Shown here: one piece after another, positions 2,956-58,847 of the stretch
Numbering within the stretch: the stretch's first letter is position 1
Layout: the number at the start of each line of letters is the position of its first letter
Assembly: GCA_021814165.1 (NCBI GenBank)
Contig: JAKAIX010000002.1
Location: 69,371-133,370 of the forward strand
Reading direction: 5' to 3'
DNA length: 64,000 bases
From: a bacterium
GTDB lineage: Bacteria > Patescibacteriota > Minisyncoccia > UBA6257 > GWB1-50-10
Translations under genes and position numbers: made by a program
The notes under the pieces: model-generated
Seen by the model: only the letters and a program-made list of their open reading frames with translations
Database searches by the model: none
Told to the model about the DNA's origin: nothing

Positions 2956-3939
2956 ATGAAACCAATCCTCGTATCGGGAATCCAGCCGACGGGAAAATTG
3001 CATATCGGAAATTACCTCGGCGCGCTCAAGAACTTCGTGGCTCTCCAAAACACGGGGAAGTTCCAGTGTTTTTTCTTTGTCGCAGATCTCCACTCCATGA
3101 CCGAGGAATTCAATCCGAAAGAGAAGTCGAAACAGGTCGAGAATCTCATTCTCGACTTTCTCGCGGCGGGGATCGACACAAAAAAATCGACGCTCTTCGT
3201 ACAGTCGGCAATCCCCGCTCACAGCGAACTCGCATGGATTTTGAACACCATCACTTCCTTCGGAGAACTGCGCCGCATGACGCAGTTCAAAGAAAAGACG
3301 GGTGAGGAGTATGAAACGACAAACGTCGGTCTTTTCGACTATCCCGTCCTTATGGCAGCGGATATTCTGCTTTACAGCGCGAAGTTCGTTCCTGTAGGCG
3401 ATGATCAACTCCAACACCTCGAACTCACCCGTACGCTCGCTCGGAAGTTTAACTCGAAATTCGGGAACACATTCTTTGAGCCGAAACCGCTCCTGACAGA
3501 AGTTCCCCGTCTTATGAGCTTGGACGACCCGACAAAGAAGATGTCGAAATCACGCCCCGAGGGATGTCTTTTTCTCGACGATGAACCGGAGGTAATCAGA
3601 AAGAAAATTATGCGCGCCGTTACAGACTCGGATACGGAGGTGCGCGCCGATCGCGATCGAAAACCGGCGGTTACGAATCTTATCAGAATCTATTCCGCAA
3701 TGAGCGGCAAGGACGCACTTCAGATTCAGGAGCGCTTTAGGGGAAAGGGGTATGGGGAGTTCAAAAAAGAACTTGCGGAGACCGTCATACAAGGACTTGC
3801 GCCGTTCCAAAAAAGAAAGAAAGAACTCAAGAAAAAACGGGCAGTAATCATGGGGCAGGTCGCCGCGGGAAACAAGAAGGCAAATGTGATCGCTTGGAAA
3901 AAACTTGCGGAAGCAAAGAAAAAAACCGGCCTCGTTTGA
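2956..3939 (+). CDS. trpS: Tryptophanyl-tRNA synthetase
   Basis: The N-terminus reads MKPILVSGIQPTGKLHIGNYLGA (a class I HIGH-type motif) and KMSKS is present. I picked the start at 2956, the internal Met that matches the TrpRS N-terminus. Confidence 0.85.
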   Translation: MKPILVSGIQPTGKLHIGNYLGALKNFVALQNTGKFQCFFFVADLHSMTEEFNPKEKSKQVENLILDFLAAGIDTKKSTLFVQSAIPAHSELAWILNTITSFGELRRMTQFKEKTGEEYETTNVGLFDYPVLMAADILLYSAKFVPVGDDQLQHLELTRTLARKFNSKFGNTFFEPKPLLTEVPRLMSLDDPTKKMSKSRPEGCLFLDDEPEVIRKKIMRAVTDSDTEVRADRDRKPAVTNLIRIYSAMSGKDALQIQERFRGKGYGEFKKELAETVIQGLAPFQKRKKELKKKRAVIMGQVAAGNKKANVIAWKKLAEAKKKTGLV

Positions 3940-3993
3940 CAGGAAAACACAAAAAGAACTAGAGTAATAACGGGTCGGAAAAAAATAATATTT

Positions 3994-4225: not shown

Positions 4226-7200
4226 CTATAATCTCCTTAATCCTATCCAGATTTTGAGCTCATCGAGCTCGGTATCAAGCTCCGCATCGAACTTCTCCGA
4301 TCGTTTCCACTCGAAGGACGCTGCTCCCGTTTCTTTCCTGATAAGCGCCTCGTTATTTTCAACGATGTGTTTGAATTCTTTGTTTCCTTCCGTCATAAGC
4401 GCGATTCTGTCCTTCGGCTCCAGTTTCGCGTCCTGGCGCAGGCCCTGAATCATCCTTACCAATTCTCTCAACATCCCCTCCTCCCGAAGTTCGTGCGTAA
4501 TTTCCGTATCAAGTATAAACTCCTCCTTCAGATTCTTATCAAACGTGATTTGCTTCACGTTAACCTCATCCTTCAATATATCAAGCAGTTCTTTCTCATC
4601 CTTTCCGCCAAAGGCGGATCCTCCTTTGGAGGAAATTCTCAATTCCCGTAATGGTTGCCTCACCTTAATTCCCAATTCCGCCCGCTTTGCGAGAACGGCA
4701 CTCGCAAGATCGCGAATTTGTTGCATTGCTCCAAGGAGTTTTTTGTCGATAAGCTTTTTGTCCGCCTTCGTCCATTCGGCCGCATGCACCGACGTGTTTT
4801 TCCCCTCAAGCGACAAATAAAGCGCCTCCGCAAAAAACGGCGTGAAGGGGGCCATGAGTTTCGTAATTTCTTCCAGCACGAACTTCAAGGTGGTTGATGC
4901 GGCGAGATAGTCTTTCTGTGTGTCCGGCTTTTGTAAACGCCTTCGCGAGCGGCGGATATACCATCGGGAGACGTCCCCGACGAACTCCTCGATATTTCTC
5001 GCCGCGATTCCCACTTCGTATATATCGAGGTTCTTCGTCGCGACATCGATAGTCTCATGAAGCCGCGCGAGAATCCACCTGTCGAGAATGTTCGAGGATT
5101 TTATATTTGAAGCTTTGGGTTTCGAATTTTTATCCCCGTATGTTTCATAAAATATGAACGAGTTGTAGATGAGCGAGAAAAACTGCCTCGATACTTTCCC
5201 GAGATCGGCTTCATCGAAGCGCTTCGGTTCGCTGGGAGGATTCACGACATAAAAGTACCAACGGACGGCGTCCGCGCCGTACTTCGCAATCATATCCCAC
5301 GGATTCACGGTGTTCCCTTTTGATTTGGACATCTTGGATCCCTCCTTGTCGAGAATGAGTCCTAGAACAATCACGTTCCGGTAGGGTGACTCGAGCCCTA
5401 AGAGTGTCGCAAGTGCAAGGAGTGTATAGAACCACCCTCTTGTCTGATCCATCGCCTCGCAAATATAGTCGGCGGGAAAGTCGATTGATTTCAGGTGCGT
5501 CCTTAGCTTCTGGTCGGAGAGTTTCAATACATGATCCGTGAGCTTCAAGCTGTTGCCGAAGGGGAAGTGCGCCTGGGCGTACGGCATCGCTCCCGAGTCG
5601 AGCCATACGTCAACCACCTCGGGAGTGCGACGCATCGCCGCCTTGCATTTGGGGCATCTGGTCGGGAGCTCGTCGATGTAGGGCTTATGAAGATCAAACG
5701 CGCCCGTCTCATCTCTCGGTACCAAGCGGAATGTTCCGCGTTCTACCTGCCCGTTTTTTACGTAATCTTCGCCGCGCCTATCCTTCTCCGCGACTGCCTC
5801 GACGCTTGTCCAGCCCTGCATGATGTGTTGCAGCATCCAAACGCATGATTCGTGCGTCACGACGAGAATCGTTTTTCCCGCATACTTCTTTTCGAGATCC
5901 CGTACAAAATCAAAGAGCCGCGCGCGAAGGTCCGCAAAGCTCTCGCCGTTCGGCGCTTGTTTTAAAAATTTCTCATGGCGGGAGCTGTAGTAGCCCTTGT
6001 ACGCCTCATACGGTTTTCCGTTAAAATCACCGAAGTCGAATTCGCGAATGCGCGGATCGAAAAGTACGGTTCCGAGAGAGAGTTGTTTCTTGAATATTTC
6101 CGCACTTTCTTTTGTGCGGGTGAGATCGGACGCAAACACGAGATCCACTTTGTCCTTTTTAATTTCCTTCGCCGCCGCCTCGATCTGTTTTCTCCCCTTA
6201 AGTGTGAGATGATACGGCTTCCTCTCGGGCCAACTGATAACCATGTGCTGAATGTTGCTCTCCGCTTCTCCGTGGCGCACGAAGATGTATTTATTGGCGC
6301 TTTTCGGCGCGAGGAGCTCAAGTTCCCTTACGCTTCCCGCGCAGTACCCCTTGCCGCATTTTTCGCACTGCCACACGGGGAGCGGCGTTCCCCAGTAACG
6401 ATCCCGCGACACCGCCCAATCCTTCACCTCGCGAAGCCATTCGCCGAACCTGCCGTCTCGAATCGTTTCCGGGACCCAGTTGATTTTTTTATTTGACGCG
6501 AGAAGTTTCGACCGGAGCTTGCTCATAGCGATAAACCATGAGTCGCGCGCGTAATACAGGAGCGGCGTACCGCACCTCCAGCAGAACGGATAGTCGTGGG
6601 TGTAAAGTTCGGTTTTAAAAAGGAGTTTTCTTTTCTTGAGATATTCAAGAATTTTATTCGTCGTTTCCGTTTCCGTCTTCTCGTCCTTCGATTTCACTGT
6701 CATTCCTTCGAATCCCTTCACGTCTCCCGTGAATCTCCCCCGCTCGTCCACCGTATGATGCTGGGGAAGCCCGATTTTTGTTCCGAGATTGTAATCGTCC
6801 TCGCCGTACATTACCGCGGTATGCACGACGCCCGTACCGTCAGTCGTCGTCACGAAGTCAGCGAGATATATCTTGTAGGAGGTCTCTGATTTAAGCGCCG
6901 GCACGTCGAAGAGCGGCTCATACTCAAGCCCGACCAGGTCGTTCCCGCTTAAAGTGGCAAGTGTCTCGTATTTCGTATCAAATATTTTATCCGCTAAATC
7001 CGCGGCAACAATAAAGTTTTCCCCGGTATTCTTAATACTCACTACTTGATACTTGATGCTCTTCCCTACCGCGAGCGCCACGTTTCCCGGTAACGTCCAC
7101 GGCGTCGTCGTCCAAGAGAGAATATAAGTATCACCGCGAGTTTTTAGTTTCGGGTTTTTAGTTTTTAGTTTAAATTTTATATATACGGAGGTGTCTTGCG

Positions 7201-9612: not shown

Positions 9613-9659
9613 TTATATTAATCCGTCCGTAATTTTTGATTCCTAATTTGTAATTCCCG

Positions 9660-11429
9660 TTACACGACTTCTGCTTGATAACATGATTCGCAGTATACAA
9701 TCTCATGTCGCTCGGGCGCGTAGCTTGTCTCGAACTCGTTGGGACATTTCTCCGTCCCGTGAGTATGTTTCCCGGTATTTTGATAAACGCCGTTTTCCGA
9801 TTTCGATCCCACACATTGGCACTTTCTATGCCATAACTTAAGTGGATTCTTCCGAAAAAACCGCGCCTGATGTCTGCAGTTGGGACACAGACGCGGAAGG
9901 GGCAGATTCATCCTGCGGTGAAACGTGAGTTCCTCCGGAATGATTTTGAACGCCGTAGTACACTGATGCGCGCACTTCCCTTCGTGCGCGCATCCGACTA
10001 CCTCCTCCAAAATAGAATCCGGAACATCTTTAATGGTCTGCTGCAAATTTTTGCTCTCTTGCGTCACCTTATAGTTCCGCTCCTCCGGCTCCTTCCATAA
10101 AAATCCCTTTCCTGCCGCTTCCTGCTTTGAAAGAGGGAAGTAGTCCTGAGCGACCGTTTCGTTATATGCAAAGGGGCAGAGATCGGAGGAAAAAAATTCA
10201 CCGTATCCGAATCGCCGTCCTCCGGTATCCTGAAACGGTTTTTCTTTCATCTGCAGAACGACTTTTTCTCTTAATTCTTCATATTCCTCTTTCGAATATT
10301 GTTTGTTTAAAATGCAGTATTGCGCTTTCCGCAAACTTACGCACCCGAACAAATTATTCGAGTTCTCGCAGGTATCGCAGTATTCCGCATCAAAATCGTT
10401 CCATACGCAGTATCCGAACTTCACATTACTCGTCGTGATCGCGCTCACAATCTCATACGAAAACTGGCCATCATCAACCGCAACATACCCGTCATAACAG
10501 TTCCTGCTTTTGTTTCCGTGATTCATGAACTTCGAGTCCTCAAGCAATTCGGAATCGTATGCATGAAAGGCGTTTTTCGAGTTGAACACGTAGTCACCCG
10601 AAACGTTGGTGTTTTGAATCCCGTGGATGTGTTTTGATGGGAATCTTTTCCAGAACTCGAACGCGAGAACTCGCGTCGAGTCGATACCGTCCTGGGAGTC
10701 CAGTCTCATGGACTCCATTTCTTTCAAATAGTCCTCTTTCGAGTACTGCTTATTGAAAATCTGATAGCGCGCGTTCCGCAGGTTGGCACATCCGATACAG
10801 TCCTGGCAGTTCGCACAGTTCTTACAAAAGAAGAGGTCTTGGGAATCATTGCAATCCTCCGAAAAGCAGATCTTGTAGCACTTCCGGCACGTGACCGAAT
10901 CGTAAGAAAGTTCGCACTCGTGGCAATTCAGGAGATCCGCACTGTTGCGGCAATCGAAGGTTGAATACGAGTACATCAGATCCTCATTGTGGTCGCTTAC
11001 AAAGATAAGGTAACAATTTTTGTTGAACGCAGCGCCGTTCGCATAATCGCTCTTCACATTCTGAAATGCGAACGCATAAAGACGCGGAACTTTAAATTGC
11101 AGTTTCCTGAACTGTTCGAGAAAGGGCCTCGAGAAATCGACATCAACACCGAAAGAAAGCGGATCCCACTTATCCGAGTGGTAACACTCCCGGCAGTACA
11201 CTGTGTAGGGCTTGTCGGGAGAGTATATGGAAATTATGGTGTTGCCGCAGAGATCGCATTTTCTCCGGTACAAACTGCGTTCACAGCGCCAGATGAGGCG
11301 CCGCTGCAATCTGCATTCCGAACACCACGTGGGAGGAGGAACCTGTAGTTTCTCATAAAATGAAAAATCATCCGGTTCGATCGTGAACGATTGCTTGCAA
11401 TTCTGACAGATTTTGGATTCCGTATTCAT
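9660..11429 (-). CDS. Cysteine-rich multi-zinc-ribbon protein, paralog 1 of 3 (family not recognised)
   Basis: The true start is probably the internal Met (MNTESKICQNCKQSFTIEPDDF...) at 11429, not the track start at 11495. It has an N-terminal double CxxC ribbon (PPPTWCxxCRLQRR), two internal C-x2-C-x2-C...FGC...YCIxNKQYSKEEYE modules, and a C-terminal Cys/His cluster ending YCESCYQAEVV. Confidence 0.7.
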   Translation of the reverse strand: MNTESKICQNCKQSFTIEPDDFSFYEKLQVPPPTWCSECRLQRRLIWRCERSLYRRKCDLCGNTIISIYSPDKPYTVYCRECYHSDKWDPLSFGVDVDFSRPFLEQFRKLQFKVPRLYAFAFQNVKSDYANGAAFNKNCYLIFVSDHNEDLMYSYSTFDCRNSADLLNCHECELSYDSVTCRKCYKICFSEDCNDSQDLFFCKNCANCQDCIGCANLRNARYQIFNKQYSKEDYLKEMESMRLDSQDGIDSTRVLAFEFWKRFPSKHIHGIQNTNVSGDYVFNSKNAFHAYDSELLEDSKFMNHGNKSRNCYDGYVAVDDGQFSYEIVSAITTSNVKFGYCVWNDFDAEYCDTCENSNNLFGCVSLRKAQYCILNKQYSKEEYEELREKVVLQMKEKPFQDTGGRRFGYGEFFSSDLCPFAYNETVAQDYFPLSKQEAAGKGFLWKEPEERNYKVTQESKNLQQTIKDVPDSILEEVVGCAHEGKCAHQCTTAFKIIPEELTFHRRMNLPLPRLCPNCRHQARFFRKNPLKLWHRKCQCVGSKSENGVYQNTGKHTHGTEKCPNEFETSYAPERHEIVYCESCYQAEVV

Positions 11430-11498
11430 AATTCCCGTTACACGACTTCTGCTTGACCCTCCTTCGCTTTTCGAGCTACGAAGGGCAAGTAGCACCGC
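11430..11498 (-). other. 69-bp spacer between the tandem paralogs containing a fossil copy of a paralog 3' end (...QAEVV-stop + CGGGAATT)
   Basis: The 28-nt block TCAAGCAGAAGTCGTGTAACGGGAATTA at 9651-9678 (the C-terminal codons plus stop of paralog 1) is repeated at 11430-11456, directly upstream of the paralog 1 ATG. Confidence 0.6.
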
Positions 11499-13286
11499 TC
11501 ATACAACCTCCGCCTGATAACATCCCTCACAGTAGATGACCTCGGGTCGCTCCGGAGCGTACGGAGTTTCAAATTCGCTGGGACAGTGGGTGTTTCCATG
11601 AACGTGCTTACCGGTATTTTTGAAAATTTCCTTCTCGGAAGCGGCGCCCGCGCACATGCATTTCCGGTGCCAGAGCTTCAACGGATTGCGCTTCGAAAAC
11701 CGCTCATGGTGGCGGCAATTGGGGCAGAGGCGCGGAAGCGGTACTCCCAGCTGCTTGTACAAACTAAGCTCCTTGGGAATTATCTTGAAGGCGGTCGTGC
11801 ACTGCTCCACGCACTTCCCTTCGTGCGCGCATCCTACAACTTCGTTCAGGATAGAATCATTTACATCCTCGATACGATCCGGAAGATCATTGGCGCGTAC
11901 CGTGACGGTGTAATTTTTATTTTCCATTTCCCGCCATACGAGTCCGCGCGCTTCCATTTCCTCTTTAGTGAGCGGGTAATAATCTTGTGCAATTGTTTCG
12001 TTATAGGCGAAGGGTGAAAACTCCGGCGGGAAAAACTCGCCGTAGGCATACATCCTCCCCTTCTTATCCGTGTACGGCATCGCATTCATGTGGGCAACGA
12101 GCTTCGGCAACAGTAATTCATACTCCTCTTTTGTATACTGCCTGTTCAGGATGCAATACTGCTTGCTGTGCAATCCCACACACCCGAAGCAGTCCTGGCA
12201 TCCGGTGCAGCCAACCGAGTAGTAAATTCGCGCACTCCCCTTTATGAAGAAGCTGAAGTAATAGTCCTGGTTTTCATTCGATTCGAATCCTATCGCTATC
12301 GTCTCATACACTCTCTCGGCGCTCGGCATGCCGTAGTTGTCATACCCGTCCTTCACGCCGATCACCGCATACACCGTGTATTTCGAGTCCTCGGATCCGG
12401 TCCCCGACAGATCGAAACAGTTCTTGCAGTTCCTGGCGTTTCTCACGTTGTCACCAGTGGAGTTTTCCGTGTTGACCATAAACGCGTAGCGATGGAGTGA
12501 TTTTCGGTATAATTCGTCGAATTTCCGCTTGGCCTCCTGCAACGCCCCGTGGTTCCCGAGATTCAGCTCTTTCACCCGCTTTTCATATTCTTCTTTGGTT
12601 AGCTGCTCGTTAAAGAAACAATTACTCTTGCCTCGGAGATTCGCGCACCCGAAACAGTTCGTACAGTTCTTGCACTCATAAAGGAACCAGGAGTCGGAAC
12701 AGTTATCCGAGTATTTACTGAAAAGGAGTCGGTTAGAGTTCTCGCATTGGATATCCTCGTAGCAAAGTTCCATCTTCGAACAGTTAAAAAGATCGAGAGA
12801 ATCTCTCGTAGATGAGGTGGTCTCGGAATAGAGAAGGTCTTCGTTCTGCCTGCCGCCGAAAATGAGATAGGAATTTTTATTCGAGGCGGTGAAGTTGCAG
12901 TAATCGGAGTTCACCGATTGTGTATTAAAAAGATTGATCACGGGTACCGCTTTAAAGAGGTTTTTGAATTGGGATAAAAAACTTTCGCTGAAATCCAACT
13001 TCATGCCGTAAGACATCGGATCCCACGCATCGCCCCACCAGCATTCCTGGCAAAATACCGTCATCGGGCTCGTGTCGGATAGAAAGGAGATAATCGATTT
13101 CCCGCACTTGTCGCACTTTCTCCTGTAGAGCGATCTCTGGTTCCGGAACGCCAGGCGCCGTTGGAGCCGGCATGCCGGGCACCACGTGGGGGGAGGCACT
13201 TTCATCTTCTCGTAGAAGGCGAAGTCATCCGGCTCGATCGTGAACGATTGCTTGCAGTTTTGGCATTGTCGTGTTTCCTTCTCCAT
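11499..13286 (-). CDS. Cysteine-rich multi-zinc-ribbon protein, paralog 2 of 3
   Basis: 595 aa. It starts MEKETRQCQNCKQSFTIEPDDFAFYEKMKVPPPTWCPACRLQRR, has the same module architecture as paralog 1, and ends YCEGCYQAEVV. Confidence 0.7.
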   Translation of the reverse strand: MEKETRQCQNCKQSFTIEPDDFAFYEKMKVPPPTWCPACRLQRRLAFRNQRSLYRRKCDKCGKSIISFLSDTSPMTVFCQECWWGDAWDPMSYGMKLDFSESFLSQFKNLFKAVPVINLFNTQSVNSDYCNFTASNKNSYLIFGGRQNEDLLYSETTSSTRDSLDLFNCSKMELCYEDIQCENSNRLLFSKYSDNCSDSWFLYECKNCTNCFGCANLRGKSNCFFNEQLTKEEYEKRVKELNLGNHGALQEAKRKFDELYRKSLHRYAFMVNTENSTGDNVRNARNCKNCFDLSGTGSEDSKYTVYAVIGVKDGYDNYGMPSAERVYETIAIGFESNENQDYYFSFFIKGSARIYYSVGCTGCQDCFGCVGLHSKQYCILNRQYTKEEYELLLPKLVAHMNAMPYTDKKGRMYAYGEFFPPEFSPFAYNETIAQDYYPLTKEEMEARGLVWREMENKNYTVTVRANDLPDRIEDVNDSILNEVVGCAHEGKCVEQCTTAFKIIPKELSLYKQLGVPLPRLCPNCRHHERFSKRNPLKLWHRKCMCAGAASEKEIFKNTGKHVHGNTHCPSEFETPYAPERPEVIYCEGCYQAEVV

Positions 13287-13395
13287 AATTCTTAGTTCAT
13301 AACTCTTTATTCCCGTCTCTACTACTCTACCGCGCGGGGCAGAAAATCTCCAGCACGAAGTTGATCTTCAAATACGTTTCCCTCCAATGTAAATA

Positions 13396-14794: not shown

Positions 14795-14801
14795 TAGTTT
14801 G

Positions 14802-15139
14802 TGGAGATGGCCGGAGTTGAACCGGCATCCAGTAGCTTCCTTACAAACCTTCTACAAGCTTAGTCCGTTAAGACGATGTTTGATTCTTTGTTTAACGAGC
14901 GTATCCGAATCGCTATACACTCACGAGTCCCATGTATAACACCAGTGATCCTCTATGGAACCTGAAGGACTGATGCCCCTCCTTCGCATAAAGCTACGGG
15001 AGGGGATCCCACACTACGCGTAAGCGAGCGCGGGAACTGCGTTTCTATTGGCAGTTAAAATTGAGTGAAGAGTTTCACGAGATTTTCAGCTCGACCTGCG
15101 GTTTGCAAGGGAATGATACTGTCGAAGCCTAGCATCCCC
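14802..15139 (-). ncRNA. ssrA: tmRNA (SsrA), about 338 nt
   Basis: Minus-strand 5' GGGGATGCTAGGCTTCGAC and 3' ...GCCGGTTCAACTCCGGCCATCTCCA form a 7-bp acceptor stem with one G-U pair, and the T-arm is GCCGG-TTCAACT-CCGGC. A candidate tag ORF GCC AAT AGA AAC GCA GTT CCC GCG CTC GCT TAC GCG TAG encodes ANRNAVPALAYA. smpB is adjacent. Confidence 0.7.
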
Positions 15140-58516: not shown

Positions 58517-58740
58517 TTTTTTTGGTTTGCCCCATTCCCTCGCGGCACCGGGTGTCGGAATGCTCCTGCGGCATTCCGCACCCTACGCTCTCGGCTTCCG
58601 CCTTCGCACAAAGCTTCGGCCGGACAAGCGCCCTTACTTTTGCCCTGCCCTCCGTAGCTTTCAAGCGAAGGAGGATCGTCCTGCGAGAGCTGCCGCTTAG
58701 GAACGAGGGCAAACCACACACAATCAATCAAAAAAGATCT

Positions 58741-58834
58741 GCGCCATACTCCTTCGAACGAGGGTAAGGCTTGGCCAAGCCTGCCTGCGCAGGCAGGCGG
58801 CCCGGAGCGCCCGAGTCGAGAAGGAGTATGGCGC
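58741..58834. mobile_element. MITE-like element, family B copy 2, with perfect 14-bp terminal inverted repeats (GCGCCATACTCCTT / AAGGAGTATGGCGC) and an embedded family-A core CCTGCCTGCGCAGGCAGG
   Basis: Shares the CGAACGAGGGTAAG and GGAGCGCCCGAGT blocks with 17410-17490. Confidence 0.6.
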
Positions 58835-58847
58835 AGAGAACAAAAAC

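Follow-up and report, generated by a model that had tools for sequence, protein, structure and literature searches.

The 28 bases stranded between two tandem paralogs of this patescibacterial genome are a displaced, untranslated copy of a family-gene terminus. What they record is recombination between gene ends and not the duplication from which the paralogs arose. We hold with about even confidence that the spacer in which they sit (11430-11498 of the window, the whole 64-kb stretch of DNA analysed) is a hairpin plus gene end copied into paralog 2 (P2) by recombination, the fossil then being P2's old end. An earlier, sequence-only reading of the locus is partly supported: it recognised the displaced terminus and recombination between paralog ends, both of which hold, but gave the fossil the wrong age and cause. 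What appeared to be a scrap of pseudogene becomes a datable recombination mark, and the ends of tandem family genes prove to be exchanged much faster than their cores. A new, recurrent module of hairpin and spare terminus, specific to one very large CPR gene family, also comes to light.

The 28-mer, TCAAGCAGAAGTCGTGTAACGGGAATTA, has exactly two exact copies in the window, both on the minus strand, where shuffled sequences are expected to hold none, and the observation is beyond chance. As the sequence-only reading had it, the downstream copy at 9651-9678 encodes the QAEVV-stop end of paralog 1 (P1) plus 9 nt of flank, and the match is exact. Its verbatim recurrence had been placed at 11430-11456; the copy is indeed exact, but its true range is 11429-11456, the last base being the A of P1's ATG, a start that agrees with the family N-terminal consensus. 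This upstream copy codes for ..QAEVV-stop in a frame shifted +1 from P2 and P1. It had been located 16 nt after P2's stop, whereas the actual distance is 42 nt (11457-11498), filled by a conserved hairpin element, with P2's live end YQAEVV-TGA just upstream of the hairpin, as reported. Further copies had been proposed for a search of the genome; our search covered the window, where there are none beyond the two and nothing else resembling the 28-mer.

Table 1. Features of the paralog array and copies of the hairpin in the 64-kb window.
Feature	Position (nt)	Strand	Description
Perfect 18+18 nt palindrome after P1	9578-9613		Inverted repeat; fold z = -4.5
Decayed copy of P1's first 19 nt	9632-9650	-	Directly after the downstream 28-mer; ATG changed to ACA; 14/19 identical to 11410-11428
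Downstream 28-mer	9651-9678	-	Live last 19 nt of P1 with stop codon 9660-9662, plus 9 nt of 3' flank
Paralog 1 (P1), 589 aa	9660-11429	-	Bracketed by both 28-mer copies
Upstream 28-mer	11429-11456	-	Untranslated spare terminus, 8-nt junction CGGGAATT and first base of P1's ATG; exact match
Linker and imperfect GC-rich hairpin	11457-11498	-	42 nt between P2 stop (11499-11501) and upstream 28-mer
Hairpin copy in the spacer	11458-11485	-	Model match, E=0.014
Paralog 2 (P2), 595 aa	11499-13286	-	Cys-rich protein; live end YQAEVV-TGA
Older degenerate junction copy upstream of P2	13282-13326	-	..AGTAGTAGAG ACGGGAAT .. TTATGAAC dead start .. ATGGAG P2 start
Hairpin copy in tmRNA gene (14799-15139)	14977-15005	-	Stem-loop right after tag stop codon; E=8e-4
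Third, solitary paralog, 581 aa	21313-23058	-	Without module or junction relics
Hairpin copy between convergent genes	58597-58624	-	Model match, E=7e-7
Hairpin copy between convergent genes	58647-58675	+	Model match, E=2e-4; opposite orientation to 58597-58624

Similarity between the two copies extends past the 28-mer to 47 nt at 42/47 positions (9632-9678 against 11410-11456), the 19 added bases matching at 14/19. The repeated unit is the whole junction, namely gene end, stop, 8-nt spacer and gene start. The junction before P1 has a live start and a dead end, the one behind P1 a live end and a dead start. The sequence-only reading had also noted a degenerate version upstream of P2, and this is confirmed at 13282-13326, which aligns with 9626-9672 at a score of 37 that 0/500 shuffles reached. 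The two form imperfect direct repeats of ~47 nt bracketing the P2-P1 pair, and the nucleotide alignment that had been called for finds junction-like sequence at all three gene boundaries. A local duplication is apparent at P2's start (13279-13305), where TTATGAACTAAGA is followed by TTATGGAGAAGGA and the first ATG is dead (M-N-stop) and resembles the P1 start. The gene order on the minus strand is P2, P1, the 36-nt palindrome of Table 1, which is likely the terminator of the P2-P1 pair, and then arginyl-tRNA synthetase. The arrangement is the same in NCBI MAG GCA_027423885.1 and in a Logan contig, which are independent assemblies of this organism.

P1 and P2 share 49% amino acid and 55% DNA identity, with synonymous sites saturated and the same codon at 122/284 identical residues. 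Their Cys-rich family is very large in Patescibacteria (CPR), with at least 7,936 and at least 7,975 hits in two homolog searches. It has no relative in Pfam, NCBIfam or PDB: Pfam and NCBIfam returned sub-threshold zinc-finger matches only, and PDB sequence and fold searches with the paralogs gave no match, the AlphaFold model being of moderate quality (pLDDT 76). Our literature search on the family and on such modules returned nothing relevant past general REP biology. Residues ~8-86 of P1 resemble ~480-589 (tblastn cross-hits of 24-37% identity in many loci); the N- and C-terminal zinc-ribbon regions are thus mutually similar, and the conserved gene ends form an internal repeat. As an unbiased set we used 80 genome loci fetched solely for carrying the family, with 149 family gene ends. 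Spacers of 12 nt or less, ATGA overlaps included, separate 17 of the 64 adjacent family pairs in these loci, and tight tandem arrays are therefore normal for the family.

The sequence-only reading took the fossil for a relic of the duplication that made P1 and P2. Such a relic should be as old as the paralogs and present in relatives with the same pair, and it fails on both counts. An exact 28-mer does not date from the birth of paralogs that are 55% identical in nucleotides, because at 49% amino acid identity their synonymous sites are saturated and the sequence is unconstrained. The end of P2 (CAG GCG GAG GTT GTA TGA) differs from the fossil (CAA GCA GAA GTC GTG TAA) at all six wobble positions. 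The sister strain on Logan contig L084 (SRR22746125) carries a P2 ortholog (84% nt) followed by a P1 ortholog (86% nt), joined by a 3-nt junction, TAA-CTT-ATG, with neither the 42-nt segment nor the fossil. The earlier reading had expected the 28-mer at homologous arrays of related strains and mosaicism between the paralogs; the first expectation failed at L084, and the second was borne out. Separately, the PPPTW codons of L084 (~100-130) contain a run of seven C that shifts the frame of the P2 ortholog, with the result that gene calling begins at an internal start; the run may be a sequencing error or reflect a variable homopolymer.

Exchange of gene ends was visible in a comparison of P1 with an ortholog. 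P1 is 85-98% identical to ortholog P0121 over codons ~48-540, compared with 65-73% over the first ~46 codons and 67-80% over the last ~40. Informative sites in codons 0-20 group P1 with P2 at 15 positions, versus 8 and 4 for the alternatives, and in the gene body the ortholog is favoured by 20-35 versus 0-3 sites per 20 codons. A 23-nt run identical in P1 and P2 is missing from the P1 ortholog. Relative to this 90%-identical ortholog, both ends of P1 are mosaic. Identical termini were also found in otherwise diverged array neighbours elsewhere (118 nt in L071, 29 nt in L077, 26+18 nt in L041 and 15 nt in L038). The ortholog compared with P1 here is on contig L083 (95% aa, 90% nt), in a different neighbourhood, and has no fossil at either end; in that related strain an HTH_17/Fic gene pair comes next (1956-2635), with a further family paralog behind it, and the array neighbourhood is thus not conserved.

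Variation within the array, which the sequence-only reading had suggested seeking in other strains, amounts to a single SNP inside the downstream 28-mer. Position 9661 is the middle base of P1's stop, which reads TAA both in this window and in the fossil but TGA in the L001 and L002 assemblies; this base is the sole difference in 13,770 aligned nt from NCBI MAG GCA_027423885.1 and Logan SRR13299515. A lone SNP would fall within either 28-mer copy by chance with a frequency of 56/13770, or 0.4%, and its position hints at conversion between the two copies. Paralog ends do recombine, but no observation points to the 28-mer itself as the driver of cassette shuffling: the exchanged tracts are gene ends of ~120-140 nt, and the 28-nt direct repeat would serve at most for deletion or conversion.

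The 42-nt segment holds a hairpin with arms CCCTTCG (11479-11485) and CGAAGGAGGG (11457-11466), which we class as type A'. Folded alone, the spacer is unremarkable (z = -1.5), and a BLAST search of the window and loci with the 42-nt spacer returned no second copy; a covariance model was needed. Built without the window, it found four matches in the 64 kb at E <= 0.014 (Table 1). The nine pairs of the stem are paired in 92.8% of cells across 20 relatives, against 27-48% in slid controls, with 7 double-sided changes versus 2.3 in shuffles. Many of the pairs are G-U, on the sense strand only, and such G-T pairing implies transcription. The insert agrees at ~30/32 positions (by eye) with that of L165 on an unrelated contig, where the flanking coding DNA is only ~72% identical, and is near-identical also to the inserts of L095 and L151. 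We conclude that the hairpin is a dispersed REP-like repeat: an imperfect palindrome of ~20-40 nt with covariation, present in four dispersed copies in 64 kb, mostly after ORFs. Specificity to the P1/P2 family was rejected, as copies occur in the tmRNA, between other genes and inside coding DNA. The hairpin was also found in frame within a family gene (L138), beside a 5' stump (L101) and alone (L017, L037). The in-frame copy (L138, 2090-2137) adds ~SDEALAKADA in a variable loop before the last zinc-ribbon motif, and resembles Rickettsia palindromic elements.

One copy belongs to the tmRNA at 14799-15139 on the minus strand, recognised by Rfam (117 bits) and by ARAGORN and carrying the tag ANRNAVPALAYA with its stop. 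Compared by eye, the L095 insert agrees at ~26/29 positions with the stem-loop after the tag, which is near-identical to the hairpins after family stops; these likewise sit 5-12 nt past the stop. The resemblances may reflect a common origin or a common binding factor, and the near-identity to the post-tag helix hints that a role at the RNA level may be shared. Rfam searches of the window and ten module loci returned tRNA and tmRNA only, and a scan for promoter and terminator consensus found no excess over shuffles. The two remaining copies in the window stand head-to-head in a densely structured 330-nt gap between convergent genes (58517-58847), within a larger inverted repeat, GTTTGCCC .. GGGCAAAC, for which Rfam has no match.

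What is confined to the family is not the hairpin but the two gene ends that flank it. In the module a live family-gene end with its stop is followed by a short linker, the GC hairpin and a second, unexpressed gene end with its own stop; the upstream 28-mer of the window is this second gene end. Besides the window, six of the 80 unbiased loci have the module (L016, L034, L035, L053, L072, L006), with inserts of 39-56 nt containing a GC-rich hairpin in L072, L053, L034, L016 and L035. A close copy of the last 21 nt (at least 16/21) lies 15-110 nt downstream of 3/149 family ends and of 1/1384 other ORF ends, the lone non-family case being AT-rich. A scan of JGI metagenomes returned at least 120 stretches with at least 125 pattern matches, at least 67 of which pass a family-end motif filter (at least 63 distinct); since the pattern demanded two gene ends 28-58 nt apart, frequencies, boundaries and stump lengths from this set are biased. 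The inserts fall into a few conserved hairpin sequence types, one of which fits the window. In the loci examined, each hairpin of these types after a family stop has a second end, and hairpin-only cases are absent.

The second terminus has the character of coding sequence. In 43 modules the 12 nt outside the search pattern fit GAR NNN TGY TAY at 376/387 constrained positions, while the second and live termini differ at 60/129 wobble positions and have the free codon in common in 5/43. Differences of this coding type mean that the second end was recently part of another live end, or was refreshed from live ends, and a target-site duplication with neutral drift of the second copy was rejected on the same substitution pattern. 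Hairpins are conserved above the adjacent coding DNA (100% against 79-81% in L119/L162, 97% against 67-75% in L095/L151), and beyond the second end neither pair shows related DNA. Modules L106 and L130 are 93% identical over a shared block that opens 170 nt before the stop (-170) and closes at +56, 12 nt into the second terminus; the tails of their second termini and the downstream DNA differ. Tandem repeats of the module occur in L201, L165, L170 and L150. The second terminus meets the next gene's ATG by an ATGA overlap in L137 and L157 and by the 8-nt junction in the window, and this preserved native junction marks the second end as the one in native context. Insert lengths fall in all three frame classes, so that the second terminus has no fixed frame relative to the first. 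Read-through, hopping of the T4 gene 60 type and a small ORF over the second terminus were all rejected, there being always a stop, nothing beyond it and no start codon.

For the spacer of the window, we propose that recombination copied the module in. In tandem arrays the last ~20-120 nt of neighbours and their short junctions would repeatedly be homogenised by gene conversion or unequal exchange, and such homogenisation would have made P2's former terminus identical to that of P1, including the 9 nt past the stop. A hairpin with a replacement terminus on its left would then have been copied into the P2 end by recombinational (break) repair, with the conserved 3' coding region as left homology arm and the second terminus as right arm. 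In the product the live end would be of donor type, followed by the hairpin and, as second copy, by the old end of the recipient. P2 would have been kept intact, its own old terminus, rather than that of another gene, being pushed downstream as a fossil still joined to P1's ATG by the native 8-nt junction. Two terminus copies would permit precise loss or tandem expansion of the module, and the two 28-mers could still convert each other. A donor module of type A' would be expected to have a left terminus ending ..GAGGTTGTATGA; the 64-kb window holds no donor module of this hairpin type.

Copying in would account for a boundary that is constant within each type of hairpin, for the L106/L130 block and for the coding-type differences between the two ends. 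It would likewise explain why no hairpin-only case follows a family gene in the loci examined, why the module can stand in tandem and, through precise loss, why its presence is patchy. Several observations fit it less well. Recombination with arms of 18-30 nt is inefficient in well-studied bacteria. Identity of the second terminus to a neighbour's end was found only in L072 and the window among ~20 testable modules, and this rarity means that copy-in requires the extra homogenisation step here. The decayed 19 nt beside a perfect 28-mer imply unequal histories, which counts against copy-in, and deletion scars better fit a hairpin beside a 5' stump (L101) and a second terminus beside a hairpin without a first one (L124).

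Deletion is at the heart of a serious rival, which we regard as a possible but rather doubtful account of the spacer. By this account a recent tandem duplicate of P1 (gene plus 8-9 nt of 3' flank) gave the order P2-P1a-P1b, and P1a was then deleted from the foot of the REP-like hairpin behind P2's stop to 19 nt before its own stop, leaving the 28-mer as a stump. It is the simplest explanation of a fossil that equals P1's end plus 9 nt of flank, and of a junction, CGGGAATT, unlike the CTT of the sister strain. Stumps of the family are common in other arrays (66 aa in L010, 100 aa in L047, 280 aa in L017), with 5' stumps in L016, L078 and L101 and hairpins at the truncation points in L101 and L124. 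Three events are needed, however: duplication, hairpin arrival and deletion. The endpoint, a GGGT foot directly before CAR, recurs with other hairpin types in the short-form modules L152, L098, L179 and L097, and independent random deletions would not give the same endpoint in unrelated contigs. The rival leaves unexplained both the L106/L130 block and the hairpin-to-GAR boundary, which is constant across 43 other modules, and the 19 nt past the downstream 28-mer have 5 mismatches versus 0 in the 28-mer itself. The end of P2 in L084 matches the live P2 end of the window at 14/18 positions and the fossil at 13/18 (by eye); the two matches are about equal and favour neither copy-in nor a stump.

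Retention of the segment for its usefulness is improbable, whether it serves P1 as native upstream region, for translational coupling or initiation context, or acts as a stem-loop device in the 3'-UTR akin to tmRNA helix 5, for example one that stabilises mRNA or binds a factor. The native spacing to the next ATG is kept in the window, L137 and L157, the hairpin is more conserved than neighbouring coding DNA, and the sense-strand G-U pairs and tmRNA-like position 5-12 nt past the stop would suit such a device. Second termini with a family gene downstream are a mere handful, however (by reading, without a scripted count), and without a consistent frame or a start codon the second terminus is untranslated. 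The spacer fold (z = -1.5) and Rfam give no sign of such a device, and the sister strain lives without the module.

Descent of the fossil from the birth of P1 and P2, with a duplicated unit that included the 3' flank, is very improbable: it would suit the junction-like sequence at all three boundaries, but is opposed by the divergence of the paralogs (49% aa, 55% DNA, common codon at 122/284), the six wobble differences and the sister strain without a fossil. A chimeric assembly join at a short repeat can be set aside almost entirely, because the NCBI MAG and a Logan assembly from a different run share the structure, the P1 protein is on 11 contigs, two of them inspected, and analogous modules occur in many unrelated assemblies.

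Going beyond this locus, we suggest only tentatively that the module is a non-autonomous element that propagates itself and is specialised for the final ~30 nt of a single CPR-specific gene family. Homing-like gene conversion would carry it from one paralog or genome to another; it would provide its host gene with a replacement terminus that keeps the gene intact, and would regenerate its target on both sides. Its hairpin may derive from or mimic tmRNA helix 5. If the module does spread by recombination, small repeats would have a simple and cost-free way into coding ends, and array turnover in uncultured genomes would have a practical marker.

Comparison with known systems places the hairpin closest to REP and BIME elements, including GTAG-tagged REPs (Di Nocera et al. 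2013, PMC3733652). Like these, it is a short, imperfect, GC-rich palindrome that is dispersed, lies mostly just 3' of stop codons, is sometimes arranged head-to-head, contains GTAG and occasionally falls in frame inside genes (PMC3733652). Unlike REPs, for which this has not been described, it is flanked by two copies of the last 20-30 nt of the host gene, and one of its copies is a structural helix of tmRNA. GTAG (CCGTAGC in many copies) is at the loop side and not at the outer end as in GTAG-REPs, and other copies have GAAG. A REP-like hairpin between two copies of a gene terminus had no match in the literature covered by our limited search.

The exchange of gene ends has parallels in gene conversion between tandem paralogs and in Neisseria pilE/pilS, where conserved ends flank a variable core and exchange tracts end inside them. 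The mosaic signal at gene ends, identity limited to a short tract and the SNP inside the repeat are as expected of gene-conversion partners, and short identical blocks between otherwise diverged neighbours are likewise familiar from tandem-paralog conversion. In contrast to pilE/pilS, the spare terminus has no variable cassette and cannot donate diversity. The homing of group I introns and inteins is similar in that the insert is more conserved than its flanks, coding sequence is co-transferred on one side (L106/L130) and the host gene is preserved. It differs in that here no endonuclease or splicing is involved, the ORF is saved by a duplicated terminus, and the target is regenerated on both sides, which allows the module to be repeated in tandem.

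Integrative elements that insert at gene 3' ends, such as tRNA and tmRNA islands and SGI1 at trmE, leave direct repeats of the gene's last bases and an intact gene. The module likewise has direct repeats of the last bases flanking an insert in an intact gene; unlike those elements, its insert is only 40-58 nt, there is no integrase and the repeats are not identical. Three further classes were considered and rejected. A MITE does not fit flanking copies of 18-30 nt that differ at 60/129 wobble positions with constrained positions intact, which is no identical duplication of fixed length. An integron attC site does not fit either, with neither RYYYAAC nor GTTRRRY at the element boundaries (by eye) and no integrase among the neighbouring genes called. 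A DGR variable/template pair, with repeats of ~100 nt or more and adenine differences, is at odds with copies of 18-30 nt and wobble differences of all bases.

Other repeats accompany the family. The palindrome TCCTGAGCTTGTCGAAGGA, whose reverse complement codes SFDKLR, occurs in antisense just after a YCILNKQY..KEE motif in L014, L033 (two genes) and L060, within coding sequence and at the same position in several genomes. Families of near-perfect palindromes occupy the 30-50 nt spacers between tandem family genes of unrelated genomes, and could be operators or terminators: a TTCTAATTCGCGCGAATTAGAA type in L015, L074, L148, L154, L161 and L176, a CATTCTAACATTCTGCAGAATGTTAGAATG type in L052, L056 and L118, and a GGGTGCTATGCTATAGCATAGCACCC type in L150 and L170. 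Long direct repeats also flank single family genes, in L062 (48+65 nt, 3791-3901 against 5842-5984) and in L078 (25+25 nt, 3939-3991 against 6026-6078); those of L078 include the fossil start of one gene joined to a fossil gene end.
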